Assembly: GCF_004010195.1 (NCBI RefSeq)
Contig: NC_057719.1
Coordinates: 180,599 to 216,889 of the forward strand
DNA from: Chiloscyllium plagiosum
Lineage: Eukaryota
Length of the DNA stretch: 36,291 nucleotides
Direction: 5' to 3'
Both the position numbers and the translations under genes were made by a program. Shown here piece after piece: positions 1,598-30,169 of this stretch; position 1 is the stretch's first letter, and every line of letters begins with the position of its first letter. The notes under the pieces were generated by a model. That model had not been told where the DNA came from. It ran no database searches and saw only the letters and a list, made by a program, of their open reading frames with translations.

Positions 1598-2010
1598 ACC
1601 CGCCGCCTGGAGGAAAAATGCCTTATATTACGCCTTGGGACCCTGCAACCACATGGGATAAATGTGGATTTCAAGAGCTTCCACATTTCCCCTTTCCCCA
1701 CATTATTCCAGTCCCAAGCCTCCAACTCGGCTCTGACCTGTCCATCACTTTTCTCATCTATCTGCTCCACTCCCCCCTCTGACCTATCACCTTCTCCCTC
1801 AGCTTTGTTCACCTATCGCTTTCTTAGTTACCTTCCTCCCAATCCCACCCCCGTCCCATTTATCTCTCAGCCCCCTGTCCCACAAGCCTCATTCCTGATG
1901 AAAGGCTTATGTCCGAAACGTCAATTCTCCTGCTCCTCGGATGCTGCCTAACCTACTGTGCTTTTCCAGCAACACACTCTCAACTCTGATCTCCAGCATC
2001 TGCAGTCCTT
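1598..2010 (+). mobile_element. Penelope-like element 3' fragment (GIY-YIG C-terminus, pseudo-LTR with hammerhead, tail)
   Basis: From 1598 translates TRRLEEKCLILRLGTLQPHGINVDFKSF, typical of a PLE endonuclease end; followed by the terminal repeat shared by the short inserts in this window. Confidence 0.8.
1895..1922 (+). ncRNA. Minimal hammerhead ribozyme motif, helix II weakened
   Basis: CTGATGA A AGGC TTAT GTCC GAAA CGTC. Confidence 0.6.
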
Positions 2011-10218: not shown

Positions 10219-10379
10219 GAAAATGTGTTGCTGGAAAAGCGCAGCAGGTCAGGCAGCATCTAAGGAACAGGAGAATCGACGTTTCGGGCATAAGCCCTTC
10301 AGGCCTGCTACGCTTTTCCAGCAACACATTTTCAGCTCTGATCTCCAGCATCTGCAGTCCTCACTTTCTCCTCGAAGAT
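10219..10379 (+). mobile_element. Fold-back mini-Penelope insert
   Basis: Inverted arm then sense arm plus tail; imperfect 14-bp TSD TTTATCCCAGGATT (10205-10218) / TTTATTCTAGGATT (10380-10393). Confidence 0.75.
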
Positions 10380-10509
10380 TTTATTCTAGGATTCTCTGGG
10401 AAGCCAGGGAGGAGATTGCAGAGCCTTTGGCTTTTAGCTTTATGTCATCATTGTCTACAGGAATAGTGCCAGAAGATTGGAGGATAGCAAATGTTGAAGG
10501 GGAGTAGAG

Positions 10510-10879
10510 CTGGAAATGTGTTGCTGGAAAAGCGCATCCAGGGAACAGGAGAATCGACGTTTCGGGCATAAGCCCTTCTTCAGGAATGGGGAAAGTTTGT
10601 CCAGCAGGCTAAGATAAAAGGTAGGGAGGAGGGACTTGGGGGAGGAGCGTCGGAAATGTGATAGGTGGAAAGAGGTCAAGGTGAGGGTGATAGGTCAGAC
10701 TGGGGTGGGGGCGGAGAGGTCGGGAAGAAGATCTCAGGTTAGCAAGGCGGTGCTGAATTTGATGGATTTGACTGAGACAGGGTGGGGGGACGGGAAATGA
10801 GGAAACTGGTGAACTCGGATTTCACCAGTTTCCTCATTTCCAGCTCTGATCTCCAGCATCTGCAGACCTCACTTTCTCC
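10510..10879. mobile_element. Penelope insert with inverted body and sense tail
   Basis: Perfect 15-bp TSD TGAAGGGGAGTAGAG (10495-10509, 10880-10894); 21-bp-arm hairpin at 10793-10841. Confidence 0.8.
10556..10583 (-). ncRNA. Minimal hammerhead ribozyme motif, intact core
   Basis: Reverse complement CTGAAGA A GGGC TTAT GCCC GAAA CGTC. Confidence 0.7.
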
Positions 10880-11427
10880 TGAAGGGGAGTAGAGACAACC
10901 CTGATAATTATAGACCAGTGAGCCTTACTTTAGTTGTGGATAAAGTTTTGGAAAGGGTTATAAGAGATAGGAGTTATAATCATCTAGAAAGGAATAAGTT
11001 GATTAGAGATAGTCAACATGATTTTATGAAGTGGAGGTCGTTGAGAAGGTGACCAAACAGGTGGATGAGGGTTAAGTGGGTTGATGTGTTGTATACGGAT
11101 TTCAGTAAGGCGTTTGATAAGGTTCCCCACTGTAGACTTTTGCACAAAATACAGAGGCATGGGATTGGAGGTGATTTAGTGGTTTGGATCAGAAACTGGC
11201 TAGCTGAAAGAAGACAGAGGGTGGTGGTTGATGGGAAATGTTCATCCTGGAGTTCAGTTACTAGTGGTGTGCTGCAAGGACCTTTTTTGGGTCCACTGCT
11301 GTTTGTCATTTTTATAAATGACTTGGATGAGGGCATAGAAGGATGGGTTAGTAAATTTGTGGATGACACTAAGGTCAGTGGAGTTGTGAATAGTGACAAA
11401 GGATGATGCAGGTTACAGAGGGACCGA

Positions 11428-11610
11428 GTCGAGAGTGTGGTGCTGGAAAAGTACAGCAGGTCAGGCTGCATCCGAGGAGCAGGAGAATCGACATTTTGGG
11501 TAAGAACCCTTCATCAGGAATGAGGCTTGTGAGCTGAATGGGTGGAGAGATAAATGGGAGGAGGAGGGGTTTCGGGCTGGTTGGAAGGTAGCTACTCCCT
11601 CCCATTTATG
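11428..11610 (-). mobile_element. Penelope terminal fragment with decayed hammerhead (11490-11517)
   Basis: Reverse complement CTGATGA A GGGT TCTT ACCC AAAA TGTC; helix II has T-A in place of C-G. Confidence 0.7.
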
Positions 11611-11932
11611 ACTTATCGCACTCTCAGCTACCTCTCAGCTACAGTGATATTATGGAATATACTATGGCATGAACTCCAGCTCCTTTTCAGCTCATAAAGT
11701 AAGATTCCAACAGCCTCTAAACTAAGCCAAACAATTGGAGTTTGAACCTTGGCTATCTTTTCCATATCATTAACTCTTAGTCTTTCTCCCAGGCCTCGTG
11801 TTTATAACACACCGCTCAGCATATTCCACACAGTGGAAAAAGTGAGGACTGCAGATGCTGGAGATCAGAGCTGAAAAATGTGTTGCTGGAAAAGTGCAGC
11901 AGGTCAGGCAGCATCCAAGGAGCAGGAGAATC

Positions 11933-11960
11933 AACGTTTCAGGCATAAGCCCTTCTTCAG
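11933..11960 (-). ncRNA. Minimal hammerhead ribozyme motif
   Basis: Reverse complement CTGAAGA A GGGC TTAT GCCT GAAA CGTT (G-U pair, GUU triplet). Confidence 0.6.
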
Positions 11961-11965
11961 GATTC

Positions 11966-11993
11966 CTGAAGAAGGGCTTATGCCCGAAACGTC
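11966..11993 (+). ncRNA. Minimal hammerhead ribozyme motif, intact core
   Basis: CTGAAGA A GGGC TTAT GCCC GAAA CGTC. Confidence 0.72.
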
Positions 11994-12079
11994 GATTCTC
12001 CTGCTTCTTGGATGCTGCCTGACCTGCAGCACTTTTCCAGCAACACATTTTTCATATTCCACACAGTGTTTGAAGAGTG

Positions 12080-12385
12080 AGCTTGTCTACTGCCTCTGAG
12101 TTAGAAGATTCCAGATTCAATCCCCACTTGAATTGATAACAGGATAACAACCCCAGCACTGAATGAGTGCTCCACTGTTTTTTCATGAACTACTGAACCG
12201 AGGGCCTGTCTCTGCTGTCAAATGGATGCAAAAGGTGCTGGTTCACTGTTGGAAGAAGAGTAGGTGAGCTCGCCAGAGTCCTCTGGCCAACGTTTATCCC
12301 TCAATCGACCTCACTGAAAGTAGATTATCTACCTGTTCTCTCGTTGCTGTGTGCAAATTGTTGGCAATGTTTTCCTACATTGAAT
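12080..12385 (+). mobile_element. Old Deu-domain SINE (SacSINE1/AmnSINE-like)
   Basis: Degenerate tRNA-like head then TGGATGCAAAAG...GAAGAAGAGTAGG...CTGGCCAACGTTTATCCCTCAA...TGTGCAAATTG...TTTCCTACATT. Confidence 0.65.
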
Positions 12386-13889
12386 GATAATCAGCGAGGA
12401 TGTCTTGAGGTGCAGTGGTAGTTTCTCTACCTTTGGCCAAGAATATCCAGGTTCAAGTCCCATTTCCCTAGTAGGTGTCATAATGTGTCTGAGTAGGTTA
12501 ATTAAATAGATACAAAGGCACACGTTTATATTCAAATACCTGGAAAAAGAAGGGTCAGGTTTGTACTTTGGATTTTGCACCCTTAACACAATGACAAGTT
12601 TTCTGTTAACTTAAAGTTTCATAATTGATAATGATGGCACTTAAGATGTAAAAAGAAATGCAGTTCTGAATTACAGACCTAATCTCTCTCTTGGATCCCA
12701 ATAGAAACTAGGAGCTGCAGTAAGCTATTTAGCCCTTTGAGCCTGCTCCAATGTTCAATATGATCATGGCTGGTCATCAAACTCAGTATCCTGTTCCCTC
12801 CTTTATCCCATTTACTTTGATCCTTTCAGTCATAAGAATTATAGTATATCTAACTCCTTGAAAACATTCAATGTTTTGATGTCCACTGCTTCCGGTGTCA
12901 GGGAATACCACAGCCCTGTGGTTCCAACATTTGCTATTTTCAAATAAAAATAGTTTTATCTAATGGTCACCTGAACACTTTCTTTCTCTACAAAATAATT
13001 CTTGACCTGCTGAAAGTATCTAGTCTTTTACGTTTCTCATAATACCTTGTACCTATATTGTGCCTTTAATATGGTAAAACATTCCAAAGTATTTTACAGG
13101 GGCATTATGAAAAGTGATGCATCCTGTACAACATAAGGTGAACTCAGGGTAGTTAGCCTTGATCATCAAGATGGATCAGAGCTAATGTTTGTAAAGATCG
13201 TTTTAAGGAAAAAAAGATTAAGTGGTGAGGCAAAAGGGTTCAGGGAAGGCATTCCACAGCTCAGGGCCAGAGCAGCTGAAGGATCTTAAATAGTGGAAGT
13301 CAGAATTAGAGGGGCACAGCTATCGGACAGTAAGGCAAAGGAGATAGAAATTTGAAGAGTTGAAGCCAATGTCGCCAAAAGAAAAGACAATTTTAAAATC
13401 GAGGTTTGAGTAAGGTCATTGATAGATTTCCGGTATGACTGCTTTTTTGCGTTTGATTCTCTGCATCTCCTGAAAGAACAGAGCACGGACTGTGGAAGTT
13501 CACCAGCATTTTTTAAAAAATTTACCTCATGGAGTATAGGAGTGCTGACTGGGCCAGCATTTGTTGCCTACCAATAGTTGCCTTTGAGAAAATGATGAGC
13601 TTGAATCTTCTGTAAGGTGCAGAGGTCCCAGCGTTTTTGCTCTCCTTGGTTTCAATGCCTGTAACATCTGAATATTATACACTGAATCAGTGATGGCCAT
13701 AACCCCAGAGGCACATTCAGGGATGACTTTGCCACCAGAATGAGATCAACAGATCATCCAAGTCTGTGATACAGAACATCTATAAGCAAGATTCTGAAAT
13801 TGATTAGAATCAATGTCATTGCATGGGGCATTCTTTCTGCTGACCAGACGGCATTGATGCGAGTAGTCAGGAAGGATGGAGAAGGATAC

Positions 13890-14720
13890 AAGACATGACA
13901 ATGTAGGAAAATAGAGCCTGCTAGAAGGAATGTAAGATTTAGGAACAAGAGTCTTCCAGCCTGCTCCATAAGATCAGGGCTGATTGGGCTATGGTCTAAG
14001 CTCCACTTTCCTGACTATGTCCCATAACCCTGGTTTCTCTCTAACCCAATATGGAATAGATATAAAGATGCAGCCTCCGTTACCTTCTGAGGAAGAGAAT
14101 TGTGCACTCCAAAAAGCCTTGGAAAGGAAAAATGTCTCACTTCTGAAAAGGGAGACGTCGTATCCCTAAAACATCCCCCGTTTTAGTCTGCTCACGAGAA
14201 GAAACATCCTCCAGGTATCCAACCTCCTCAGGGTCTTGTGTTTTAATCTCATATTTCTAAACTGCAAAAGATATAGCCCAAACCATTCAATTTGCCTCAT
14301 AAGATAAGCCCTTCATCTCAGGAAAGAGTTGACTTAACCTTCTCTAAAGTGCTATTAAAGTCATTATATTTTCTTAAATTAGGAGACCAAAGCCACGCAC
14401 AGTACCCCAGATAAGCTCACCGATACCCTGCAGAGCTGGAGTAAATCTTCCCTATTTAAATATTCTATCTCCTTGCAGCAAGCAATGTTTGCTGGACATG
14501 CAGGTTAACCTTTTGGGATTCATGTATCAGGACACCGAGATCCCTACAGCCTTTGTCAGCCTTTGGATCCAATAGTTTTCCCTTGGTGTGACAATTGGTC
14601 TAGGTTTGCTCCCCTCTCACTTCCACTGAATTTTCAAATAGTTTAGAAAAGTTTTCAAAATCTTCTGCTGTGAAGCCAGTCACCTGGCCAAAGCCTCCAC
14701 CATTTCTTTACCTTCCATTA
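13890..14720 (-). mobile_element. Heavily decayed CR1 3' region
   Basis: Reverse-complement similarity to the CR1 3' ends elsewhere in the window; no intact ORF. Confidence 0.55.
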
Positions 14721-14803
14721 TCCAAGAGAAAAAAAACATCATTCAATCTCAGGCCAACTGTGCCAACTGTGAAATGTACTGCCATTTCTGAATTGAGTTA
14801 AAT

Positions 14804-15010
14804 AAAAATCACACAACACCAGGTTATAGTCCAACAGGCTTGTTTGAAAGTACTAGGTTTTCAGTACTTCACCTTTGTCAAGTTTTACTATAAATTCTGT
14901 GTCCTATGATCCTGCCCCACTAGCTACCTGACGAAGGAGCAGCGGTCCAAAAGTTTGGACTTTCAAATAAACCTGTTGGACTATAACCTGGTGTTGTGTG
15001 ATTTTTAACT
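14804..15010. mobile_element. Fold-back element of a third Penelope-like family with decayed hammerhead at 14928-14957
   Basis: 48-bp inverted arms 14804-14851 / 14959-15006; CTGACGA A GGAGCAGCGGTCC AAAAG between them. Confidence 0.6.
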
Positions 15011-15012
15011 TT

Positions 15013-15093
15013 GGAGAAAGTGAGGACTGCAGATGCTGGAGATCAGAGCTGAAAAATGTGTTGCTGGAAAAGCGCAGCAGGTCAGGCAGCATC
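15013..15093 (-). mobile_element. Penelope tail fragment
   Basis: Same terminal sequence as the 11836 and 16651 inserts. Confidence 0.75.
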
Positions 15094-15299
15094 ATGACTT
15101 CTGAAATGGACAGTGGATGACCTAGAAATGTCATACATGCCAGACTCAGTCCAATGACTCCTGAGATGGATAGATGCCAGAAACTCTCCTGCTTGTCGAA
15201 GTTGTGTTCAGCAAGCTGACAAAATAACTTACATCGTTTCTCAGCTTCTCAGCCAACCACCAGTTCCCAATTCCTCTTCACTTTTCCTTCTCCAGGAAT

Positions 15300-15517
15300 C
15301 CACCAGAGGGAGCCTTGAGGCGGCCAGACCTGATGGGTTCAGGGCGCGCCACTCCCCCTGCTGGGGAATCCAGACTTAGTGCAGCACCTGCGTGCAGTGG
15401 CCCCTGCTGGCCGAAAGGGAGCGGTGCAGTTTCCGTATTGCAGCGCCGCCCGCTGGTGACTTGGGCGGTGGTGCAGCGGGAGCTCCGCCCCCTGGCGGCG
15501 GAGTGCCGGTGGTGCAG
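15300..15517. promoter_or_regulatory. CpG-rich cluster of five CTCF-like sites
   Basis: + CCACCAGAGGGAGC 15300-15313; - CCAGCAGGGGGAGT 15351-15364, CCAGCAGGGGCCAC 15397-15410, CCAGCGGGCGGCGC 15443-15456, CCGCCAGGGGGCGG 15485-15498; each minus site has CTGCAC 13-14 nt upstream. Confidence 0.7.
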
Positions 15518-15726
15518 TCTCCCGGCCCCATTTGTCTATGATTCAAACCCGGAAAATGGGGCTGCGCCTGGGGGGTCGTCCTGGGGCGGGGAAGGGGGGA
15601 GAGGTGGGGAAATAACCGCGGGAGGAGAACTAGGAAACACAGGACTGAAAAATACCCCATAACTAACTTCCCCGGGGAGCTATCTGGGAAAGAGTTGGAG
15701 TGGTTCCGTCATTCTGGCGGCGTGCA

Positions 15727-15799
15727 GGCTCCATAGCTCAGTGGTTAGAGCACTGGTCTTGTAAACCAGGGGTCGCGAGTTCGATCCTCGCTGGGGCCT
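15727..15799 (+). tRNA. tRNA-Thr (anticodon TGT)
   Basis: 73 nt; acceptor GGCTCCA/TGGGGCC, D arm GCTC/GAGC, anticodon arm CTGGT-CTTGTAA-ACCAG, T arm GCGAG-TTCGATC-CTCGC; Pol III TTTT at 15808-15811. Confidence 0.97.
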
Positions 15800-15942
15800 T
15801 ACTGGACTTTTACCCCTCAATTAAAGTTCCACAGATGAGGGGAACATTTTAAAACCCCCTAAAATACGACAGTCTTCATTAAGGATTGAAATACGTGTTC
15901 ACAGTCCACTGTGGCCTCACAGTCTCCTTTGACCTGGTTCAT

Positions 15943-16075
15943 AAATAGGAAGGATGTCGAGGGATGTAGTGCTGGCAAATGGCATAGATTAGTTTAGGGA
16001 TATCAGGTAGGCATGGACAAGTTGGACCGAATGGTCTGTTTCCGTGCTGTACACCTCTATGACGTTATGACTATA
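15943..16075 (+). mobile_element. CR1 3' tail fragment
   Basis: TTGGACCGAATGGTCTGTTTCCGTGCTGTA...CTATGAC tail. Confidence 0.65.
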
Positions 16076-16650
16076 TTCTTCAGCCTTGGCTTGTTTTGTA
16101 TATTTCACTTGCCACCCTCTATCACCAGCCACCATGGTCTGGAATTCCTTCCTTAAACCTCCTCTGTCTCTCTTAAAGCCTACCCCAATTAACTAAATTT
16201 TAGGGTTCCCCCGCCCCCCTTAATATCATTGCTGGTTTATAAATTTTCAATTGCCTCACTCTTCCCTATCCCTATAGCTTATGAGAGCTCTACAACTGAA
16301 GCTACAGGATGCAGAGCTGGGCTGGGAAGTGGCAGATGGAGTTCAACCTGGAAAAAGGTCAAATTTGTATGTTGAATACAAACTTAAAGGCAGGAACCTT
16401 GGCAGTGTGGAGGAGCAGCAGGATCTTGGGGTCCATGTACAAAGATCCCTTAAAGTTGGCACCCAAGTTGATAGGGTTGTTAAGAAGGCATATGGTGTTT
16501 TGGCTTTCATTAATAGGGGGATTGAGTTTTAGAGTCAAAGGTTTTGCTGCAGCTCTATAAAACCCTGGTTAGACCACACTTGGAATATTTTGTCCAGTTC
16601 TGGTCGCCTCATTATATGTGGAAGCTTTAGAGAGGGTACAGAGGAGATTT

Positions 16651-16857
16651 GAGGAGAAAGTGAGGTCTGCAGGATGCTGGAGATCAGAGCTGAAAATGTG
16701 TTGCTGGAAAAGCGCAGCAGGTCAGGCAGCATCCAGGGAACAGGAGAATCGACATTTCGGGCGATTCCTGAAGAAGGGCTTATGCCCGAAACGTCGATTC
16801 TCCTGTTCCCTGGATGCTGCCTGACCTGCTGTGCTTTTCCAGCAACACATTTTCAGC
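16651..16857. mobile_element. Fold-back mini-Penelope insert
   Basis: Inverted arms, tail on the left; 13-bp TSD ACAGAGGAGAT(T/G)T (16638-16650, 16858-16870). Confidence 0.85.
16768..16795 (+). ncRNA. Minimal hammerhead ribozyme motif, intact core
   Basis: CTGAAGA A GGGC TTAT GCCC GAAA CGTC. Confidence 0.72.
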
Positions 16858-17800
16858 ACAGAGGAGATGTACCAGATGCTGCCTGGACTGGAGGGCTTGT
16901 CTTATGAAGAAAGGTTGAGTGACCTGGGGCTTCTCTGGAGAGAGAAGGAAGGGAGGTGACTTGATAGAGGTATACAAGGTAATGAGAGGCATAGATAGAA
17001 TAGATAGCCAGAGACATTTCCCCAGGGCAGAAATGGCTGTCACGAGGGTTCGTAATTTTAAGGTGACTGGAGGAATGTAGAGCTAAGTTCTTTACACAGA
17101 TTGTAGTGGGTGCGTGGAATGCATTGCCAGTGGTGGTAGTAGAGTCAGAGACATTAGGGACATTTAAGCGACTGCTGGACAAGCACGCGGATGGCAGTAA
17201 ATTGAGGGGTGTGTAGGTTAGCTTGATCCTAGATTAAGATAAATGCTCGGCCCAACATCGTGGGCTGAAGAGTCTGTACTGTGCTCTACTGTTCTATGTT
17301 CTAACTCTTCAAGATCTCTGCACTGCAGTAATTCTGGCTTGCGAAGTGCTGATTTTAATCACCACCATAGACACCCATACCTTCAGCCACCCAGGCCCTC
17401 AATTTTGGAACAAAAGCAGAAATTGTTGGAAAAACTCAGCAAATCTGGCAGTATCTGTGGGGAGAAATCAGAGTTAACCCTTCACCAAATACAAATTTTG
17501 GACACTTCTCTCTTAATTTAAGAGGCTCTTTTTGATTAAAATGCTAAAATCAAGGTGCGAGTGAGAGCCAGTGTTAATCAGCAAACACAGTCATATGTAA
17601 ATTGGATTTAGTTGAAATTGTTTTAGTTGAAGTCACAGTTTCTGAAAAGGGATATTGACAAAAATTGGGAGCTGGAATATAATGTGGAGAAATGTGAGGC
17701 AGAATAGAGGAGCAAATACTGCAGAAAGCTACAGTTCAGAATTTAGTAGCCCTTGTGCATAGTTGATAGCCTGGTGGTAATATCACTAGACAATTAAACT

Positions 17801-17991
17801 GGTAAAAACAATGACTGCAGATGCTGGAAACCAGATTCTGGATCAGTGGTGCTGGAAGAGCACAGCAATTCAGGCAGCATCCGAGGAGCAGTAAAATGGA
17901 CGTTTCGGGCAAAAGCCCTTCATCAGGAATAAAGGCAGAGAGCCTGAAGCGTGGAGAGATAAGCTAGAGGAGGGTGGGGGTGGGGAGAAAG
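17801..17991 (-). mobile_element. Penelope terminus (variant subfamily) running into the gap
   Basis: Homologous terminal repeat with a different tail. Confidence 0.75.
17899..17926 (-). ncRNA. Minimal hammerhead ribozyme motif, intact core
   Basis: Reverse complement CTGATGA A GGGC TTTT GCCC GAAA CGTC. Confidence 0.7.
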
Positions 17992-18544
17992 NNNNNNNNN
18001 NNNNNNNNNNNNNNNNNNNNNNNNNNNNNNNNNNNNNNNNNNNNNNNNNNNNNNNNNNNNNNNNNNNNNNNNNNNNNNNNNNNNNNNNNNNNNNNNNNNN
18101 NNNNNNNNNNNNNNNNNNNNNNNNNNNNNNNNNNNNNNNNNNNNNNNNNNNNNNNNNNNNNNNNNNNNNNNNNNNNNNNNNNNNNNNNNNNNNNNNNNNN
18201 NNNNNNNNNNNNNNNNNNNNNNNNNNNNNNNNNNNNNNNNNNNNNNNNNNNNNNNNNNNNNNNNNNNNNNNNNNNNNNNNNNNNNNNNNNNNNNNNNNNN
18301 NNNNNNNNNNNNNNNNNNNNNNNNNNNNNNNNNNNNNNNNNNNNNNNNNNNNNNNNNNNNNNNNNNNNNNNNNNNNNNNNNNNNNNNNNNNNNNNNNNNN
18401 NNNNNNNNNNNNNNNNNNNNNNNNNNNNNNNNNNNNNNNNNNNNNNNNNNNNNNNNNNNNNNNNNNNNNNNNNNNNNNNNNNNNNNNNNNNNNNNNNNNN
18501 NNNNNNNNNNNNNNNNNNNNNNNNNNNNNNNNNNNNNNNNNNNN
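17992..18544. other. Assembly gap (553 N)
   Basis: Run of N. Confidence 1.
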
Positions 18545-18663
18545 GGGCTTATGCCCGAAACGTCGATTCTCCTGCTCCTTGGAGGCTGCCTGACCTGCTG
18601 CGCTTTTCCAGCAACACATTTTCAGCTCTGATCTCCAGCATCTGCAGTCCTTACTTTCTCCTC
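18545..18663 (+). mobile_element. Penelope terminus emerging from the gap
   Basis: GGGCTTATGCCCGAAACGTC...CAGCATCTGCAGTCCTTACTTTCTCCTC. Confidence 0.8.
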
Positions 18664-19072
18664 AGTATTTATGACCCCTTGAGAAGTTGGGGGTGAGCTG
18701 CCTTCTTGACCCGCTGCAGTCCATGTGCTGTAGGTTGACCCACAATGCCCTTAGGAGGATATTCCAGGATTTTGACCCAGTGACACTGAAGGAACAGCAA
18801 TATATTTCCAAGTCAGGGATGGAACTTGCAGGGGGTGCTGTTTCCATGTATCGGCTGCCTCGTACCCATTCTCTCCCAGAAAACAATTATAGGGTAAGTT
18901 GGTCATGGCCACGTGTGGAAATTTGATAGAATTATTCAAAACCATAAATTTTCAATATTTACTGTGTTTCCACTAGTAGGACTGTCAGTAACCAGGGAAT
19001 GTTGTGGATCATTGGCAAAATAACCAGAGTGAAGATTAGGAAACTTTCTTTACATGAGAGAGAGAGAGAACT

Positions 19073-19594
19073 TGCACAGTTACTGCCTTTGCTGTTTGAA
19101 TTAGTGTATCGCTGGACATCGGAGTGCATCTGGGAAAATTAACAAACAGTGAAATTCACAACTGATCTTGGAGGAACTGTTGGGCAAAGTTCACAGCACA
19201 GAATCAGATAAGTTAATCGTTGTTTTAAGTGTGGCCTACAGAGAATCTGCAGTGGTGAATAGAGTGGGTTCTTTCTTGATTATATGTTATCTTAAAGAGG
19301 TTTACAAAATTATGAGGGGCATGGATAGGGTAAATAGGCAAAGTCTTTTCCCTGGGGTCAGGGAATCCAGAACTAGAGGACATGGGTTTAGGGTGAGAGG
19401 GGAAAGATATAAAAGAGACCTAAGGGGCAACGTTTTCATGCAGAGGGAGGTACGTGTATGGAATGAGTTGCCAGAGGAAGGGGCCGGGTGCTGGCAGGTG
19501 GGACTAGATTGGGTTGGGATATCTGATCGGCATGGATGGGTTGGAACGAAGGGTCTGTTTCCATGCTGTACATCTCTATGACTATGACTCTATG
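19073..19594 (+). mobile_element. CR1 5'-UTR-like segment joined to a CR1 3' end
   Basis: 19073-19289 aligns by eye with about 27492-27718; 19290-19594 is a CR1 3' end with CTATGA repeats. Confidence 0.7.
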
Positions 19595-19609
19595 GTGAGT
19601 TGTGATCAT

Positions 19610-20310
19610 GTGGGTAAATGTGAGGTTATCCATTTGGTAGCAAAATCAGTTTATTATTTGAAAAGTTACAAATTGAGAAAGGAAAATGTTCAACAAGACC
19701 TGGTGTCCTTGTGCACTACTTGCTGAAACTAAGTGTGTACAGGCAGCAGGCAGGCAAGAAGGCAAACTCTATGGTGGCCTTTATAGCGAGAGGATTCTAG
19801 TACAGGAGCAGGGATGTCTAGAGACCATGCCTGGAGTCTTGTGTGCAGTTTTGATCTCCTTATTTGACGAAGGATGTTCTTGCTACTGAGGGAATGCAGC
19901 GAAGGTTTACCAGATGATTCCTGGGATGGCAGGACTGATGCTTGAGGAGAGACTAAGTTGGTTAGGATTGTATTTTCTGGAGTTTAGAATAAGGAGGAAT
20001 CTCATAGAAACCTATAGAATTCAGGCAGGACTGGACAGATTGAATGCAAGAAGGATGTTCCCAATACTGGGGGAGTCCTGGAGTCATAGTCTAAGAATAA
20101 GTGACAGCGGTCAGTCTGTGGAATTCACTATCACAGAAAATGGTTGAGGCAAAAATATTGTGTTTTCAAGAAGGAGGGAGCTATAGCTCTTGTGGTGAAA
20201 GGGATTATGAGATATGAGGGGAGGGTGGGATTAGAGTATTGAGCTCAATGATCAATCAGATTATATCGAACAATGGAGCAGGTTCGATGGGCTGAATGGC
20301 CTACTTCTTT
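19610..20310 (+). mobile_element. Decayed CR1 3' portion
   Basis: KCEVIH, MIPGMAGLMLEERLSWLGLYFLEFR..NLIETYRI motifs. Confidence 0.75.
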
Positions 20311-20660
20311 GTTTCTATGCTTCTATGGAAGGTGCCATCTGAAAGAGTGTTGGGAGCAGATTCGGTTGGAACTTGCACAAAGGAATTGGAGAAATACTTG
20401 AATAAACTTACCATGCAATGGGGGAAAGGCAGGAGGGTGGGAACAGATGAATAGTTTGCTAGGAATAATGCAGACATGATGGGCTGAAGGCTCACTGTGT
20501 TTATGTTTATGGTTCAATCAGTAAAAATGATACAGGACTCAATAATTCCACACAACAAACCACAAGTCCATTTGCAACTTCCTCGCGGTCTATTGGAATT
20601 GATTAGTGCAGGTGAGCAATCTGGTTATGTCCCCCAGTTGTCTCCTGAGAAAGGGCTGCA

Positions 20661-20816
20661 TTATCCTTTGGAAGATTCGGATCTCGGTGTCAAGATGCAC
20701 ACTGCACCATCTCGAGGTCGGAGAGTTCCTGTGTCCATAATTTCATAAGTGTGGCCTGGAGCATGTTGGAAGTCAAACCTTTGCAGGAATTTGGACAAAA
20801 TCACCTTTGCTTCCAT
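20661..20816 (-). CDS. CYP46A1: Cholesterol 24-hydroxylase-like P450, last coding exon
   Basis: Acceptor TTTATCCAG; MEAKVILSKFLQRFDFQHAPGHTYEIMDTGTLRPRDGAVCILTPRSESSKG*. Confidence 0.9.
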   Translation of the reverse strand: MEAKVILSKFLQRFDFQHAPGHTYEIMDTGTLRPRDGAVCILTPRSESSKG

Positions 20817-21089
20817 CTGGATAAAGAGGATCAAACTTTAATATCAGGGACCCAATTTGCTAATCACACATTGTGTATGCTAGTTCTAACACTCCAGTTT
20901 TATTTTGTCAAACACTTAATATTTGAAAATAAAACACTGGGAATAACACTGTCTATATTCTATATACAATTGTTGGGTATTATTCAATAACCACAGTGTC
21001 TCAAATTAATAATATACATATTATAGAAAACACAACTTGTTACTGAGCTTTTTTGAATTCATTGAGAAGATGCAGGAATCACTGACTTG

Positions 21090-22375
21090 GCCAGAATTTA
21101 CTATCCCTAATCGTCCTGAAGAAGGTGGTGGTAAGCTGCCTTCTCCAACCACTGCAGACACCACGGCACTGTTAGGGAAGACTTCTTACTCAGTGACACT
21201 GAAGGAAACAGTGATATATTTCCAAGTCAGGATGGTGAATGACTTGGAGGGGAACTTGCAGGGGGTGGTGTTCCCATGTATCTGCTTTAGATTAGGTTAC
21301 AGTGTGGAAATAGGCCCTTTGGCCCAACAAGTCCACACCGACCCGCCAAAGCGCAACCCACCCATACCCATTCCCCTACATTTATCCCTTACCTAACACT
21401 ACGGGCAATTTAGCATGGCCAATTCACCTGACCTGCACATCTTTGGACTGTGGGAGGAAACCGGAGCACACTGCTGCTACTGAGCGTCGGTGGTGGAGGG
21501 GGTGGGTGTTTGTGGATGTGGTGCCAATCAAGCGGCTGCTTTGTCCTGGATGGTGCAAGCTCCTTGAGTGTTGTTGGGGCTGCCCCCATCCAGGGCAAGT
21601 GGGGAGGATCCATCACACTCCTGACTTGTGCCTTGTAGATGGTGGACAGGCTTTGGGGAGACCGTTGGCTGAGTTAATTGCCACAGAATTCCAGGATGTT
21701 GACAGTGGGAGATTCAGTGATGGTAATACCATTGAATATCAAGGAGCAGTGGTTAGATTGTCTCTTATTGAAGATGGTCATTGCTTGGCATTCCTGTAGC
21801 GTGAATGTTACTTGCCACTTGTCAGCCCAAGCTTGGATATTGTCCACATCTTGCTGCATTTGAACATGGACTGCTTCAGTATCTGAGGAGTCGCAAATGG
21901 TGCTAAATATTTGCAATCATCGGCGAACATCCCATTTCTGACCTTAAGATGGAGGGAAGGTCATTGATGAAGCAGCTGAAGATGGCTGGGCCTAGGACAC
22001 TCCCCTGAGGGACTCCTGCAGAGATGTCCTGGAGCTGAGATGACTGACCTCCAACAACCACAACCATCTTCCTATGTGTCAGGTCTGACTCCAACCAGCG
22101 GAGGGTTTGCCCCCGATACCCATTGATTCCAGTTTTGCTAGGGCTCAAATATGGCCTGGATAACGAGGGCTGTCACTCTCACCTCCCCTCTGGAATTGTC
22201 CAGGTTTGAACCAAGGCTGTAATGAGGTCAGGAGCTGAGTGACCCTGGCGGAACCCAAACTGAGCATCACTGAGCAGGTTATAGCTGAGCAGGTGCTGCT
22301 TGATAGCACTGTTGGTGACCCCTTCCAGCACTTTACTGAGGATTTAGAGCAGACTGATGGGGGGGTAACTGGCTG
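21090..22375 (-). mobile_element. Decayed CR1/L2-group LINE of a second family, with a partial HE1-like SINE at about 21288-21470
   Basis: [36 protein letters not shown]; related 3' ends occur near 8825, 18665, 33595 and 35570. Confidence 0.8.
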
Positions 22376-22517
22376 GAACATATCATCAGCCATGACCTCA
22401 TTGAATGACAGAACAGACTCAATGGGATGAATGGTCTACTTCTGCTCCTCTGTCTTATGGTATTATAATGCCAACTCCACATACAATTAATGTTACTTAG
22501 CATATCAATGACATTAC

Positions 22518-22584
22518 CTGTGCAAAAACCTGGCCAAGACAGGAACGTGGCCCTAAAGTGAACGGGAAATAGCAGTAGTAGGGT
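22518..22584 (-). CDS. CYP46A1: CYP46A1-like heme-binding exon (67 nt)
   Basis: AG/GT bounded; (K)PYYCYFPFTLGPRSCLGQVFAQ contains FxxGxRxCxG. Confidence 0.93.
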
Positions 22585-22680
22585 CTGGAATCAATCAAAA
22601 TCCATGTGTTAGTTGCATCATAACTATTGGACATTGAGTCTCATCAATGGCTTTTACACAAACAATAGGTTTTCAGAATA

Positions 22681-22858
22681 AAAGCCGAAAGAACCGCAGA
22701 TACTGTAAATTAGAGACAAAAATAAGAATTGCTGGAAAAGCTCAGCAGGTCTGGCAGCGTCTGAGGAAGGGTCACGTGACCTGAAACATTAACTCTGATT
22801 TCTCTCCACAGACGCTGCCAGACCTACTGAGCTTTTCCAGTAATTTCTATTTTTGTTT
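22681..22858. mobile_element. Fold-back mini-Penelope (second family) with hammerhead motif at 22761-22791
   Basis: Inverted arms about 22715-22763 / 22809-22856; CTGAGGA A GGGTC ACGT GACCT GAAA CATTA. Confidence 0.7.
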
Positions 22859-23012
22859 GTGACAGATTTATGGAATTCAATTTCACAACTGGTTTTGAGG
22901 AAAGACAGACTTGGGGATATCTATTGACACTTCCTCCTCTCAGGGCTTCTCTTGAACGAAATATTTTCCAGGTGCACATATTGTTGTGACGTAAAAAACA
23001 GAGCAACACTTA

Positions 23013-23159
<147 letters not shown>

Positions 23160-23344
23160 TTAATTCAGATAATCCTGGAGCTTGACAGTGCCAGACAGTG
23201 GTTCCTAGTTAAATCTAATCAATGAGACATTCTGGAAGGCAGGCAATAGATGTGCTTGCCAGCTCCTCGCTGGACACACCAGTGATAAAGACGAAGCATT
23301 TTCCATCTCACCAAATCTGCTTTGGGTTCAGAAACAGAGATGAT

Positions 23345-23786
23345 TCTGAGGTGATGCCCTCTGGTTCTAGACTCTCCCACAAGGGGAAACAACTTCTCAT
23401 CATCCACCTTGTCACCATCCCCCTTAAAATCTTGAATATTCCAATAAGGTCTCCTCTCATTCTCCAATGACCAATACCCCCTACTCAGCTCAGAAGAACA
23501 TCCCTCCTTATGCAGGATCAGTCTCATGAACCTTCTCAGCACTGCTTCCAAAGCCAGGATATCTCTCCTTAGATAAGGGCAATCGAACTAACCACAGCTG
23601 TGGTCTGACCAGCTCTTTATGTGGTTTTAGCAAAATCTCCCAGTTTTTATACTCTATTCCCCTTGAAATAAAGGCCAACATTCTATTTGCCTTCCCTATT
23701 ATCTGGTGAACTTGGACAGTAGCGTTTTGTGATTTATATACTAGTTCACTCAAATTCCTCCGTTCCGTAGCTTTCTGCAGTCTTTC
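23345..23786 (-). mobile_element. Decayed CR1 fragment
   Basis: IGKANRMLAFISRGIEYKN, LVRPQL, LFPLVGESRTRGH. Confidence 0.8.
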
Positions 23787-24080
23787 TTACCAACTTTGAC
23801 AGATGCACCATAGAATGCATTCTATACAGATGCAGCATGTCTTGGTTCGGCCAACGCTCTGCCCAGGACCGTAAGAAACTACAGAGGATGTGAACACAGC
23901 CCAGACCATCACGCAAACCAGCCTTGACTCCATCTACACTTCTCGCTGTCTCGGACTGGCAGCCAACATAATCAAAGTTCCCCCCCCCTCCCCACCCCGA
24001 TTATAATCTCTTCCAACCTCTTTCATTGGGCAGAAGATACAAAAGCTTAAACACACAGACCAATGGATTCAAGAACAGTA
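23787..24080 (+). mobile_element. Rex1/Babar-like LINE C-terminal fragment
   Basis: Frameshifted TNF.RCTIE.IL, SAQDRKKLQR, DSIYTSRC, GRRYKSL, FKNS motifs. Confidence 0.6.
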
Positions 24081-24584
24081 CCCACCCGTTTAATCCCCCA
24101 CCCACAATCCCTCAATAAAAAGGAAGGAAGTTACTGGGGTTGTAGAGGCGATGGGAACAGGATGGGACATGGTGAGGATGTGCATAAATTGTTGAAACAG
24201 CTGAGATGACTGAGAACATGCATCTAGTGGCACATGTGCGATGTTATGGCTTTATTAGTAAAGTATGAAGTACAAAAGCAAGAAAGCTCAGGTGAAGCTG
24301 CACAAAAGACAAGCTCCTCAATTGCAGCTTTGGGTCCAATTTTGGACACAGCATTTATGGAAGGGATCTATGGGCCTGGTTGGGGGCATTAGTTACATGG
24401 GGAGAGTGAGATATTCTCTTTGGAGAAGAGAAAATTGAGGGGAAATCCAATCAACACATTCAAAGTCTCCAGAGTTCTGGGCAGAGTTGTTCAAGAGAAA
24501 CTGTTTCCATTGAGGGGGGGGGGGGGCAGATTGAGAGTAGTAAAGGAGGAACAGTTGAGGTGATTGGTTAGGATTCAGGGTACA

Positions 24585-24705
24585 GTTTCCTGATGAAGGG
24601 CTTTTGCCAGAAATGTCGATTTTCCTGCTCCTCCGATGCTGTGCTTTTCCAGCACCACAGTAATCTTGACTCTAATCTCCAGCATCTGCAGGACCTACTT
24701 CTGCC
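24585..24705 (+). mobile_element. 121-bp mini-Penelope insert with decayed hammerhead at 24590-24617
   Basis: 16-bp TSD TAGGATT(C/T)AGGGTACA (24569-24584, 24706-24721). Confidence 0.8.
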
Positions 24706-24951
24706 TAGGATTTAGGGTACACTGATACTGTGGGGAAACAGTCAACTGAGGCTTTCCAAAGAAGATTGGATAATTATCTGAAGAGAAAAATATTGTAGGG
24801 ATGGGGAGGGGACTCAGTGAATCACTCTCACATATAACTAGTACACACTGCTGAGGCACCAACATAACTGCTCTATGATTCTCATCTTTAATCGACAAAA
24901 CATAATCAGGAATAAATGCTACTCCTTTTAACATATAACTCAACAACTTAC

Positions 24952-25062
24952 AATCACAGAAACTCCGCCAGGGACCTTTATTCCTTCAATGACCATTTCC
25001 TGTGACAACCAGCGACTGGTCCCTGGTCCTGGGGGGTACAGCCTCAGAGTCTCCTTTATTAC
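24952..25062 (-). CDS. CYP46A1: CYP46A1-like K-helix exon (111 nt)
   Basis: AG/GTAAGT bounded; VIKETLRLYPPGPGTSRWLSQEMVIEGIKVPGGVSVI with ExLR. Confidence 0.93.
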
Positions 25063-25248
25063 CTGTGAGAAAGGGATCATGACCACAATCACACCGTTAG
25101 AAAACTGAAATGAGGTTTTCAATCACAATCCATTCCTGACAGGGACACAGTTCGGAACCAGACAGCAAGTGCCACAGGATTTGAATATCAATGCAATGAA
25201 TTAGGAGGCATCTTGAAAATGTTTTATGAGTGGTGTGCTTAGAGTTTC

Positions 25249-25446
25249 ACTCTGCATCTAACCCTGTGCTGTCCCTGTCCTGGGAGTGTTTGATGGGGAC
25301 GGTGTAGAGGGAGCTTTACTCTGTATCTAACCCTGTGCTGTCCCCGTCCTGGGAGTGTTTGATGGGGGACAATGTAGAGAGAGCTTTACCCTGTATGTAA
25401 CTCTGTGCTGTCCTGTCCAGGGAGTGTTTGATGGGGACAGTGTAGA
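25249..25446. repeat. 69-bp tandem repeat, about 2.9 copies
   Basis: Units start at 25249, 25318, 25388: ACTCTGTATCTAACCCTGTGCTGTCCCTGTCCTGGGAGTGTTTGATGGGGACAGTGTAGAGGGAGCTTT. Confidence 0.92.
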
Positions 25447-25753
25447 TTTCATGAAAAAATAAACTACAAAAAAGTTGCGAGTGATCTGTTCATAGTCTTG
25501 AGGATAAGGAGAGGAATGCCGGACAAGAAGTTATAACCTTATCATTAAATATTCTTCACACAACGATTGGTGGAAACCTGATGCCGTCTGAGCTGAGAAC
25601 CATCCAGCCCAATCTGGATTTTCAGAACAGGGATTGGATTGAGTGTTGGCTAAAGGGAGAGCCTGCAAAGGTGGGTGAATGGAGCTCAGCTTTAGATTAG
25701 TTCCAATCTAACTGAATTATGTAACGCCTGTGGGTCTGAATGCCCCCTTCCTA

Positions 25754-25783
25754 TTCCTGTTCCTGTTCCTGTTCCTGTTCCTG
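25754..25783. repeat. (TTCCTG)5 microsatellite, probably an expanded LINE tail
   Basis: Five perfect units after a decayed CR1-like 3' end. Confidence 0.85.
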
Positions 25784-25865
25784 TGAGATGGTTTGTGTTA
25801 TATGCGTGTCATAACATGATGTGTTTGGTGCCACGCAAATGCATCCACACCAATCAGAGCTGCAC

Positions 25866-25950
25866 CTGATTCATATACAGCAATTGGCCAATGTCATCAG
25901 CAGTAACATCACTCTTCAACCCAACAACTTCATCCACTTCTGCTTGCAAC
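25866..25950 (-). CDS. CYP46A1: CYP46A1-like exon (85 nt)
   Basis: (CT)n acceptor, donor GTGCAG; LQAEVDEVVGLKSDVTADDIGQLLYMNQ; phases fit both neighbours. Confidence 0.92.
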
Positions 25951-26364
25951 CTGAAGGAGAGAGAGAGAGAGATCGCATTATCCAGGAACACAGGAGTATC
26001 CTGGGAATAAACTTACATTACTATAGTTTCCTTGCAGCTGAGGTTGTTAAGGAGTGATCTGGACAGGATCTTAATGTGGAGGAAATGAGGGGAAATAGGG
26101 TGGATCTTCCCCTACAGTGGCAGAATCTCCAACAAGGAGACTAACGCGGAGGACTGGAGCTCATTGAAGCAAACACAGGGGACGTTTCATCACACGACTC
26201 GTGTGAATGTGGCAACTATGTCTGCATGAGATTCGAGGCAGTAAGTCAGTATGAAGATGGAGGATTGTTTGGGAATTGTAGATACTGTAGCTAAGGAGAA
26301 AAGGTAAAGATCTAGGATGAAAGAGACAGAGAGTGTGCACAACTTCGTAACTCCTCAATAAAAT

Positions 26365-26620
26365 ATTTTAGAAGCTGTTGTAATATTGGAATTGCAGCAC
26401 CCAATTTTCACACAGCAAACTCCCACAAACAGCAACGGGATTGTGATCAGATCATCTGGTTTTGAGAGCTGTCGGTTTAGAAATGAAGGATAAATATTTG
26501 TCAGGGGAGAATTGTTCTGTTCTTCTGCAAAATAGTGGCTGTGAGGGGGAATCTTTGTCAATGACCCGAGAGGTAGATAGGGCCTTAGTTTAACCTTTCA
26601 TGCAAAGACACAAGCTCCAA
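26365..26620 (-). mobile_element. Old Deu-domain SINE
   Basis: Reverse complement resembles 12180-12385 (AATATTTATCCTTCA, TTGCTGTTTGTGGGAG.TTGCTGTGTGAAAATTGG). Confidence 0.6.
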
Positions 26621-26779
26621 CATGACTGTTTGAGAGTTTCAGCCTGGATTATAGGTACAAGCCTCTGGCAGGGACTGAGACTCCTAGCTTTCTACCAGAA
26701 TCACAAAGGGGGTCATTTGGCCCATCATCTCTGCACGAGCTGTTTGCATCGGCAAGCTGGCATTGCAATTTTCCTGTCT

Positions 26780-27487
26780 TGTCCCCATATCCTTGCACAT
26801 TGTTTCTTGTTAAATAATCATGCAGTGCTCTCTTCAATGCTTCAATTGTACCTGCTTCCACATTTCCATAGAGTACATTCCAGAACTGAGCCATCATTTT
26901 GTGGAAAAAATTATTTCTCACACTGTGTTGCTTCTTTTGCAAATCACTTTAAATCTGTGCCCTCTCATTCTTTATCCTTTTAAAAGTGGGATCAGTTTCC
27001 ATTATCCATTCTATCCAGATTGTTCATCATTTTGAAAATGTTGATAGATCTCCTCTTAGCCTTCTCCTCTGCGCAAAAACATTCCCAACTTCTCCAAGCT
27101 ATGAAGGTTTTCATTCTTAGAATCATTCTTGTAAACCTCTTTTTCACCTCCAATGTGTTTACATCTTTTCAATAATGTGGTGCCTACAAATCTACACAAT
27201 ACTGAAGTCTAAATGGAGCCTAGCAAGAGTCTTGTACAAGCTCACCACCATCTCCTTTCCCTTCTCCGTATACTCCTATTAATAAAGCTAAGGATACTGC
27301 ATGCTTTTATAACTGCTCTCTCCCTTGTCCTGCCACCTCCAATGATGTGTGCATCTACACACCCAGCTCCCTCTGGTCCTGAACCTTCCTTAGTGTTATA
27401 TCCTCTATTTTACATTGTCCACCAACATTCTTTGACGAAATTGCATCACCTCACATTTATCTGTATTAAATCACATTTGCCATTGTG
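26780..27487 (-). mobile_element. Decayed CR1 3' portion
   Basis: RNNFFHK...WNVLYGNVEAGTIEALKRALHDYL. Confidence 0.7.
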
Positions 27488-27491
27488 ATCC

Positions 27492-28765
27492 TGTGCAGTT
27501 ACTGCCTTTGCTGTTTGAATTCATGTATTGCTGGACATTGGAGTGCTTCTGGGAAAATGAACAAACAGTGAAATCCACAACTGATCCTGGAGGTACCTGT
27601 TTGGGAGAAGTCACAGCACAGAGACAGATATGTAAATAGTTTTAAGTGCAGCCTTGGGGCCTTGCTGTAAGTCTGCAGTAGTGGATAGATTGGGTTCTTT
27701 CTTGATTATATATTTTATTGAGATATGTCTCTTGATTAAACTTGAAAATATAAGTCATAAGTATTAAGTTAGACTGGGGCAGTGTTTTGTACAGGAATAA
27801 GACGGTGCTATTTTCTGGGTCTGTAGATTGAAAGAAGCAAAAATGGCCCTTAAGTAGGGAGATGCTCTTCATGTCAGATGTGGCAGTTTAGGGAGAGTTT
27901 ATGTGTTACTGAGGATTATATCTGCAATAAATGCCGTTGGTTGCGAATCCTATCAGATCAAATGGAACAATTGGAGCAACAGTTGGAGGCAATGAGGAAT
28001 TTACAAGAGCAAGGGGGCATGATGGATGGCAGTTATAGGAAGGGGGGAAAGTCACAGATACAGTCACATAGATGGGTTAACTCCAGGAAAGGTAAGAGAG
28101 GTAGGCAGGTAAAGCAGGAGTCTTCTGTGGCTATCCCCTTTTCAAAGAAGTATGCTGTTCTGGAAAATGTAGGGGGTGATGGATTCTCAGGGGAATGTAG
28201 CACGAACAGCCAAGTTTCTGGTATTGAGACTGGCTGTAATGCAGTGAGGGGTACGTCAGGTTCCAATGATCGACTGTGTTCAGGGACTCTCTAGTCTGAA
28301 GCACAGACAGACGTTTCTGTGGCCAGCAGTGAAAAATCAGAATGGTGTGTTGCTTCCCTGGTGCCAGGATCAAGGATGTCTCAGAGAGGGTGCAGCATGT
28401 TCTCAAGGGGGAGAGGGGCCAGCAGGAGGTCATTGTCCACATTGGAACCAATGACATAGGAAGGGAAAAGGTTGAGATTCTGAAGGGAGAGTAAAGAGTG
28501 TTAGGCAGGAATTTAAAAAGGAGGTCCTCACGAGTAGTTAAAACTGGATTACTCCTGGTGCTTTGAGCGAGTGAGGGCAGGAATAGGAGGATAGAGCAGA
28601 TGAATGCTTGGGCTGAGGAGCTGGTGTATGAGAGAAGGATTCACATTTTTGGATCTTTGGAATCTCTTCTGGGTAGAAGTGACCTGTACAAGAAGGACGG
28701 ATTGCACCTGAATCAGAAGGGGACTAATATACTGGCAGGGAGATTTGCTCGAGCTGTTATGAGGG
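27492..28765 (+). mobile_element. CR1 5' half: 5' UTR and disrupted ORF1 (zinc finger, coiled coil, SGNH esterase)
   Basis: CSSCQMW...DYICNKC, heptad QMEQLEQQLEAM, CCFPGARIKDVSERV, VIVHIGTND, DLYKKDGLHLNQKG. Confidence 0.85.
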
Positions 28766-28938
28766 TAGTCAATTGCTTGGTTACAGTTTCTCCTGCTCGC
28801 CTTTCATTCCAGTCTATCCTGCCCAGCTCTGCTCTTGCCCTAGTGAGGTCAGCCCGACGCCAATTGATGTTTGTTACTGTGGGTTGCCCATTGTCATTCT
28901 CCATCATCATCCTGAATCTTACAATGATCACTATCTCC
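28766..28938 (-). mobile_element. Inverted CR1 ORF2 fragment (end of endonuclease)
   Basis: GDSDH then INWRRADLTRARAELGRIDW. Confidence 0.7.
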
Positions 28939-29196
28939 TAACTCTTCTTCAGGCAAGGGATTTCAAGCCACTGATCGATAACTATCACTACTGGGCTCTT
29001 TTAACTTACACAAAGCCTCTTAATTTGAAGTCAAATTCTGACCTTTACTCTCAAATTGACATTGTAAAAGATGTACCAATTAGAATTTTGACTGTGAAAA
29101 ATTTCCAGATACACTTACTTGACGTTCAGTTCCTTTCACTCCCCCCGCCCCAAGTCTCTGCCCCAACTCCCCAATCCACTCACCCACTGTCCTTAC

Positions 29197-29269
29197 TTTT
29201 TTCTTATTTCAGGTTGCCGTGTCAACTCCATGATGACAAAAGCAATCAGATTGGCTGTTGTCTCTTGAC
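29197..29269 (-). CDS. CYP46A1: CYP46A1-like I-helix exon (73 nt)
   Basis: Acceptor CTCACAG, donor GTAAGG; GQETTANLIAFVIMELTRQPEIRKK completes AGxET. Confidence 0.93.
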
Positions 29270-29924
29270 CTGTGAGGAACAAAACACTCGTCAACTGGAA
29301 CGCTGCTCCGGGAACCAAATATGGGAAGGCTTTGCACAGGGGCAGAAGAGATTGACTAAAATCCTACCAGGGACGAGGGACTTCAGTAACCTCGAGAGAT
29401 TGGAAAAGCGGCAATTGTTTTCCTTAGAGTAGAGAAGGTTAAAACGAGATTTAACAAAAAGTTTTCAAAATCAGAAAAGATTTTGGTAGAGTCAACAAGG
29501 AAACACTATCTCCACTTGCAAGAGAGTCCGAGTTAAATAATTGGCAAAGAACCAAGCTGGCAGTTTGGATCCAGGGAATTGTTAGTGCTTGGAAGTTCCT
29601 GCTGTAAAGTGCAGTTGACATTGGGCCATTGAATAGATTCGAGGCTGAGTCAGATGGATTTTTCATCCTCAAGGAAGATGAGAGTTCCAGGGCCAGGTGG
29701 GAGAGAGGAGCTGAGGTCACAGGCAGGCTTGATGTTATTGATTGATGAATTTGGCTCAGGAAGGCTGAATGGTCTGCTTTGGCTCCCAATCCATCCTCGA
29801 TGTCCTTGTGACTTGAAGGAGGGCTTTACAGTGGAGGGAATTCGAAGGGATACTGGGGGGATTACAGGACCAATCTGTTCTCTTTAGGGTGAAAGTTGGA
29901 GTAACAAGCCCAGAGAACCCTGGA

Positions 29925-30005
29925 GTTCTGAGGAAGGGTCACTCAACCCAAAACATTAACTCTGATTTCTCTCCACACATACTGCCAACTACTTCCAATT
30001 TTTGT
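29925..30005 (+). mobile_element. 81-bp mini-Penelope insert (second family) with decayed hammerhead at 29928-29958
   Basis: Perfect 16-bp TSD CCCAGAGAACCCTGGA (29909-29924, 30006-30021). Confidence 0.75.
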
Positions 30006-30169
30006 CCCAGAGAACCCTGGATGTCCAAGAATATTCAGAATTAAAAGGAAAAGAGGGACATATAACAATTACAAAGGCAGCAAAGTAACAGAGGCCCCAG
30101 AGTATAGGAAGTGCCAGAGAGGGGGAGAATCTTTCCTAATTAGGAGAGCAAAGATAGGGAGGGGGGAAT

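Follow-up and report, generated by a model that had tools for sequence, protein, structure and literature searches.

Penelope-like stubs in Chiloscyllium plagiosum share a 5' boundary that is probably the capped start of the element's long RNA

Insertions of endonuclease-positive (EN+) Penelope-like elements (PLEs) are described as carrying inverted, head-to-head pseudo-long terminal repeats (pLTRs), a tail of 30-40 nt on one arm only, a target duplication and partial tandems (Arkhipova et al., 2013, PMC3846280; Craig et al., 2021, PMC8557442). Inr (initiator)- and TATA-like words are noted in a rotifer pLTR (PMC3846280; PMC8557442), and D. virilis Penelope is known to start transcription within its pLTR (PMC2377424). 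The same layout, with partial tandems, an inverted copy, a one-sided tail and a target duplication, is found for the element studied here, which recurs through the window, that is, the whole analysed stretch of 36,291 nt (G000:C10:180599-216889) of the 3.56-Gb genome of Chiloscyllium plagiosum. Unlike the described insertions, most inserts here consist of two stubs only, without an open reading frame (ORF). Judged by sequence, they are pLTR stubs of an EN+ PLE, probably of the Neptune clade. We argue that the start they share, four bases 5' of the hammerhead ribozyme core, is probably the capped site at which transcription of the element's ordinary long RNA begins. Element positions are given on a scale where 0 is the C of CTGANGA and negative numbers lie on the 5' side.

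Metazoan PLEs carry minimal type I hammerheads, mostly as single motifs with some opposite-strand pairs (Cervera and De la Pena, 2014, PMC4209133). The arrangement here is alike, and so are the parts: CUGANGA, an unpaired base, stem II, GAAA, a 2-bp palindromic helix III and a short stem I. Core and stems were recognised by sequence, with the predicted cut (after GAAACGTC) falling after +27; an Rfam scan returned no hammerhead match, only weak miRNA-like matches on the palindromes. Bases -4..-1 form the 5' strand of stem I, with modest covariation (8 sequences). In copies elsewhere in the genome, an ORF upstream of the long copies carries reverse transcriptase (RT) motifs, a CX2-5CXXC linker and GIY-YIG motifs. 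The Pfam matches (RVT_1, E 1.4e-5; GIY-YIG, E 1.8e-4) are both slightly below the cut-offs; YIDD and YIGET motifs are present, and in locus L174 an A-type hammerhead lies 321 nt past the EN frame. The linker joining RT to EN reads CYCRNCKTC in L036 and is decayed in L174; it is a Neptune feature (PMC8557442) that is also found in Nematis. Downstream of a family-A1 unit follow a leader, an ATG at ~+162 and a PLE-type ORF N-terminus with a DKG motif. The order is thus -4, hammerhead, body to ~+90, tail to ~+126, leader, ORF, pyrimidine-rich 3' part and the next -4. Family B is provisionally placed with Neptune by its common hammerhead, body and layout, from a comparison of short upstream pieces only. 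The 271 arms found in 1.34 Mb extrapolate, roughly, to 7e5 genome-wide. Several copies of the family-A3 ORF (L080, L174, L176, L177) have in common a short tandem repeat of ~50-60 nt after the RT region.

The initial annotation of the window had noted that five inserts start just 5' of CTGANGA, and all five sites are confirmed. Two head-to-head stubs have plus arms that both start at -4 (ATTC). The first (11835..12051) joins a minus arm with tail (-2..+125) to a plus arm at 11962-12051 (-4 to ~+86), between copies of the target duplication CATATTCCACACAGTG at 11820-11835 and 12053-12068. The second (16651..16857) joins a minus arm (+16..+127) to a plus arm at 16764-16857 (-4..+90), with an extra G at 16763 and the duplication ACAGAGGAGAT at 16638-16648 and 16858-16868. 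A family-B head-to-head stub (22690..22860, outer ends approximate) has a plus arm from ~22760-22761 (~-1..0) and a fold-back joint that shares TCTG; a clean target duplication was not found for it. The remaining two are solo stubs on the plus strand. One, of family A4 (24585..24705), runs from -3 (24587, with GT in front) to the tail and has a duplication core AGGGTACA at 24577-24584 and 24714-24721; the other, of family B (29924..30005), starts AGTT CTGAGGA (-4), its A also belonging to the target duplication CCCAGAGAACCCTGGA at 29909-29924 and 30006-30021. Target duplications are thus clear in four of the five, head-to-head palindromes make up three window inserts of the listed families, and no ORF is found at any of the five. 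The same base is seen in context in a long family-A4 pLTR copy (1603..2009, plus strand), where CTCATTC at 1888-1894 has its A at 1891 (= -4), as had been claimed. This copy comprises a pyrimidine-rich upstream part, a TTTATC box (1859-1864), the Inr-like TCATTC (1889-1894), the minimal hammerhead (1891-1926, predicted cut after 1922), body and tail. The five arms were chosen by hand and other arms in the window start elsewhere (at -2, +5, +16, +45 and +57), so the five alone prove little; a blind sample was therefore taken.

In all, 1.4 Mb was sampled as 140 stretches, each of 10 kb, including 20 that adjoin the window. Copies were detected via the 3' body and aligned to long natural copies, each copy being excluded from its own reference, which gave a young family-A set of 110 arms (24 censored by N or by the reference end). 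Stops fall at 0..-5 in 27 of the 110, a rate of 8.5 per 100 arm-bases. The rate is 3.5 at -6..-12 (8 stops), 2.7 at +10..+1 (20 stops) and 0.15-0.8 in all remaining bins, so that the rate at 0..-5 is 21 times that outside +10..-12 (p ~1e-22). The breakpoints are accordingly clustered rather than evenly spread, in agreement with the initial annotation, which had also held that the start is distinct from the ribozyme cut. This too is upheld: families A1 and A2 have 2 stops in 1464 arm-bases at +32..+11, the interval containing the cut site, and the stop-rate profile rules out a start at the cut. Solo arms stop at 0..-5 in 11 of 45 cases. In family B, whose copies were found with a query from +36 onward, 15 of 39 ends lie at -6..-1, a lower bound (+21..+36 is unreliable in these old copies); four copies are long. 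The Poseidon-like family P, which also bears a hammerhead, has no stop at 0..-12 among 25 arms. Eight of its 25 5' ends lie instead at -57..-23, near a CACTATAAA/CACTACAAA word at ~-56 (e.g. L038:941+, L159, L037, L143), perhaps a different start site. An alignment artefact from the conserved ribozyme is countered by the young copies, the leave-one-out natural references and the joints with partner, ORF and duplication, and an assembly artefact is opposed by target duplications and unequal arms. Assembly gaps do end at the same hammerhead base (+6 to +8) in many copies (L191, L200-L206), so the assembly undercounts long and palindromic forms.

The same boundary is seen in units linked to the ORF. 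Queries downstream of +127 found 50 such units, of which 36 reach at least +45 toward the 5' side and 34 of these are uncensored. Ten of the 34 stop at 0..-5 and 18 at +9..-8, while 7 pass -26; three rows at +26..+32 look like one duplicated insertion. Pieces of the ORF are also fused directly to the beginning of another unit; of 15 such junctions, counting only loci from queries past +127, 12 lie at 0..-8, ten of them at -4/-5. Such junctions are the trace expected from a template jump at a physical RNA end. A junction cluster at -60..-113 was set aside, having been selected by a query that contains the upstream pLTR.

A further possible mark of an RNA end is the base in front of -4. In the 37 arms that stop exactly at -4, the base at -5 is G in 26, A in 9 and T in 2, compared with a G background of 27% (p 4e-8) or a hand-estimated partner-arm null of 41% (p 3e-4). 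G precedes stops elsewhere in 15 of 68 arms, and long copies have C at -5 in 58 of 58. The G at 16763 had been singled out as possibly untemplated and cap-derived; the opposite arm, which predicts A, does not account for it. This G is among seven of the 26 that have no template in partner arm, ORF or flank. Joint templates were judged by eye, as the automatic 'explained' labels were too permissive, and the automatic 'unexplained' count is unused; a flank-only G count (8/11) was also set aside, being hand-picked and including one row outside the 37-arm test. In L1 and SVA, an extra 5' G, likewise at a junction with 1-2 nt of microhomology, is interpreted as reverse-transcribed cap (PMC3287187). 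There it marks full-length inserts, whereas here it marks products of 95-130 nt. The remaining Gs could be of either origin, which is what pairing of an extra C on the cDNA with a target G would give. The A at -4 also lies in an Inr-like word in families A, B and C (TCATTC or TTATTC, TCAGTY and TGAGTC, in that order), with a T/A-rich box ~30 nt upstream (TTTATC/TTATCT in A and C, TATAAA/TAAAAA in B), the Inr and TATA consensus motifs serving for comparison. A splice acceptor was considered as the boundary, given the pyrimidine tract, the AGs at -25, -18 and -8 and the analogy of the D. virilis intron. This was rejected: A2 does not conserve the AG, there is no accumulation of stops at it, and the joints have no common upstream exon.

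Several observations weigh against a capped start at -4. Nineteen of the 26 Gs are assignable to partner arm, ORF or flank, or are ambiguous, and 11 of the 37 rows in the G test come from loci found with a query starting at -4. The TATA-like box is weak in family A, and the Inr-like word may be conserved for the ribozyme, since -4..-1 is also stem I. The boundary is soft: stops at -6..-12 account for 8 of the 110 arms and in some cases affect both arms of the same insert. Finally, no RNA 5' end was observed: 2165 RNA reads, from a single-cell polyA library of another species label that is neither a start-site library nor a test of the start, lie on both strands, run in 93% of cases into unlike sequence and show no pile-up of molecule starts. 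The best-supported 5' loose end in those reads is -4, which indicates only genomic breakpoints of that species.

The other ends of the arms have a close parallel in PAc, a Poseidon element of the green anole (Frangieh et al., 2024, PMC11167929). In PAc the tail ends are two internal RT starts, both target strands are nicked and extended, and uncleaved RNA is the main template; in vitro, RT starts ~110-120 nt into the ORF and product length is set by the RNA 5' end. These features have probable counterparts here. PAc differs in belonging to another clade and in its ORF, which starts inside the hammerhead at stem II, whereas here the ATG lies at ~+162, after the tail; a mapped transcription start of PAc was not found in the text consulted. 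The 3' ends of the arms are bimodal, at ~+88..+93 and +125..+127, and 44 of 49 head-to-head inserts pair a tailed with a tail-less arm (45% expected, p 3e-9). Since tail ends are internal RT starts in the lizard element, the 3' ends of stubs need not be RNA ends. In 17 of 32 pairs the haplotype is common to both arms, against 8% expected, as would follow from double use of one RNA or from a single source locus. Palindromes have been attributed to self-priming on an antisense template (PMC3846280); the present data favour two cDNAs from sense RNA. As a separate observation, cDNAs that arrive from the ORF side frequently terminate at +90..+106, immediately 3' of the first RT start (L184-L189, L195, L207, L210, L223, L246, L249); the second RT subunit, or the cDNA it makes, may block them.

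The initial annotation had explained the shared start by an RNA of ~130 nt, begun at the Inr and mobilised in trans. Indirect genomic evidence supports one part of this, an RNA 5' end at the Inr-like A; a dedicated non-autonomous RNA is disfavoured by the shared boundary and by the haplotypes. A separate short RNA, whether of ~130 nt or a read-through born at stubs, would account for the excess of stubs over ORF copies (133 of 213 A1/A2 arms are short-only against 80 long, in a mixed sample). It would also suit 5'-truncated copies that retain ~40 nt upstream and with it the putative promoter, and the pLTR promoter of D. virilis is partly internal and able to drive downstream transcription (PMC2377424). 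Yet ORF-linked units have the same 5' boundary, and the ten commonest haplotypes, a comparison of limited power, all occur in both stubs and long or ORF-linked copies. Poly(A) tails are absent, the 3' ends fit internal RT starts, and stubs are without the upstream TATA-like box at -30. Joints, moreover, vary from one head-to-head insert to the next, so palindromes are not copied as units; subfamilies of their own and fixed copied units, the hallmarks of a SINE-like mini-element, were not found. Tandem retrozymes set the precedent for a non-autonomous derivative: non-LTR retrozymes are non-coding, hammerhead-bearing and PLE-derived, like the stubs (bioRxiv 10.64898/2026.07.22.740005). They are described there as head-to-tail tandems, whereas the inserts in the window are solo or head-to-head stubs whose start lies 32 nt above the cut, and head-to-tail tandems of at least two hammerhead units are not among them. 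Retrozyme units begin at the cut site. Altogether a separate short RNA appears unlikely. Two-unit deletion forms of ~330-390 nt do occur elsewhere in the genome (L183 = L090:2130-2660, L197, L269; query-enriched), with the order pLTR, hammerhead, tail, leader, pLTR, and these look like retrozyme units.

Stalling of RT at the folded ribozyme on a longer RNA was the alternative raised with the initial annotation. In its favour, -4 coincides exactly with the 5' edge of stem I, and stops range from +10 to -12. RT would however meet the fold from the 3' side, at +31, where A1 and A2 have almost no stops, and the hammerhead of family P is accompanied by none at 0..-12. Units fold no better than shuffles (z -0.9 to +0.7), and a stall leaves the extra G unexplained, which makes this account most improbable. 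Joining bias, in which short self-complementary words at -3..+10 (TTC/GAA, CTTCAG/CTGAAG) favour fold-back or annealing, is also very unlikely as the cause of the boundary. These words are used at many head-to-head joints and probably account for the shoulder at +1..+10, but the same base also bounds solo arms and ORF junctions, where there is no inverted partner. Furthermore, the arm reaching furthest 5' is the tail-less one in 23 of the 44 mixed pairs, so simple fold-back cannot make the tailed arm.

If -4 is the capped start of the long RNA, the inserts would probably arise as follows. Pol II would start at the A of TCATTC/TCAGTY, ~30 nt below the TATA-like pLTR box, and the minimal hammerhead would make up the initial ~36 nt of an RNA that serves uncleaved. 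Self-cleavage and circular templates have been proposed for the metazoan PLE hammerheads (PMC4209133), whereas the genomic record here shows templates that keep the 32 nt upstream of the cut. The two nicks made by the RT/endonuclease, one in each strand, would lie ~11-16 bp apart, and cDNA would begin inside the RNA at ~+90 and ~+126, one site per nick. After 95-130 nt each cDNA would reach the cap, copy it as C and run off. Annealing of cDNA ends via short matches would then give a head-to-head stub, joining of a cDNA end to the target a solo stub, and a jump elsewhere in the element RNA an ORF piece joined to -4. About one quarter of arms are seamless through -4; their source could be either read-through RNA or a jump onto the 3' repeat of the RNA. 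Longer pLTR-initiated RNAs may also be mobilised in trans.

Other copies in the window are more varied. A head-to-head stub that the initial annotation does not list (10218..10374; minus arm +5..+88, plus arm +57..+128) lies within an older LINE-like repeat, and a solo family-A1 stub on the minus strand (15013..15093, +45..+125) starts 3' of the hammerhead. A long family-A1 copy on the minus strand (10487..10830, ends approximate) passes -4 into the upstream pLTR, reaching at least -224. Also on the minus strand, a family-A4 copy (11426..11570) has ~50 nt of upstream pLTR, and in a family-A3 copy (17801..17991) the upstream pLTR is interrupted by an N gap. An N gap also masks the 5' end of a family-A1 copy on the plus strand (18545..18663). 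The window further holds an inverted-arm insert from another family (14800-15010) with a CTGACGA core at 14928, an intact-looking tRNA gene on the plus strand (15727-15799; Rfam 71.4 bits, anticodon read as TGT, Thr) and a 69-nt tandem unit repeated three times (25241-25446).

The element class, its layout, the tail and the minimal hammerhead are already known. A fixed 5' boundary, a cap-like G or jumps at the boundary were not found described for PLEs in the open-access literature, the scope of which did not include supplementary figures S1-S2 of PMC11167929. How pLTRs are rebuilt and what the hammerhead does are stated as open questions (PMC2377424; PMC8557442). The genomic arms bear on both, as they record where cDNAs started and stopped; the template they point to is capped and uncleaved, with jumps at its 5' end. 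Template and jumps alike can be put to a direct test in the in vitro system that already exists for PLEs. Tentatively, and as a possibility that we regard as rather doubtful, PLE replication may include a retrovirus-like strong-stop step within target-primed reverse transcription, in which an RT dimer, working on its own uncleaved mRNA, starts at two sites 95-130 nt away from the cap, copies the cap and obtains longer products only by a jump to the 3' repeat. If so, stubs would result from jumps that failed, ORF-to-(-4) chimeras from jumps to a wrong place, and both seamless copies and partial tandems from jumps made correctly. Such a step would account for the regeneration of the pLTR together with its promoter. 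The hammerhead would then be the head of the mRNA, bearing the cap, and its cleavage would leave the RNA decapped.

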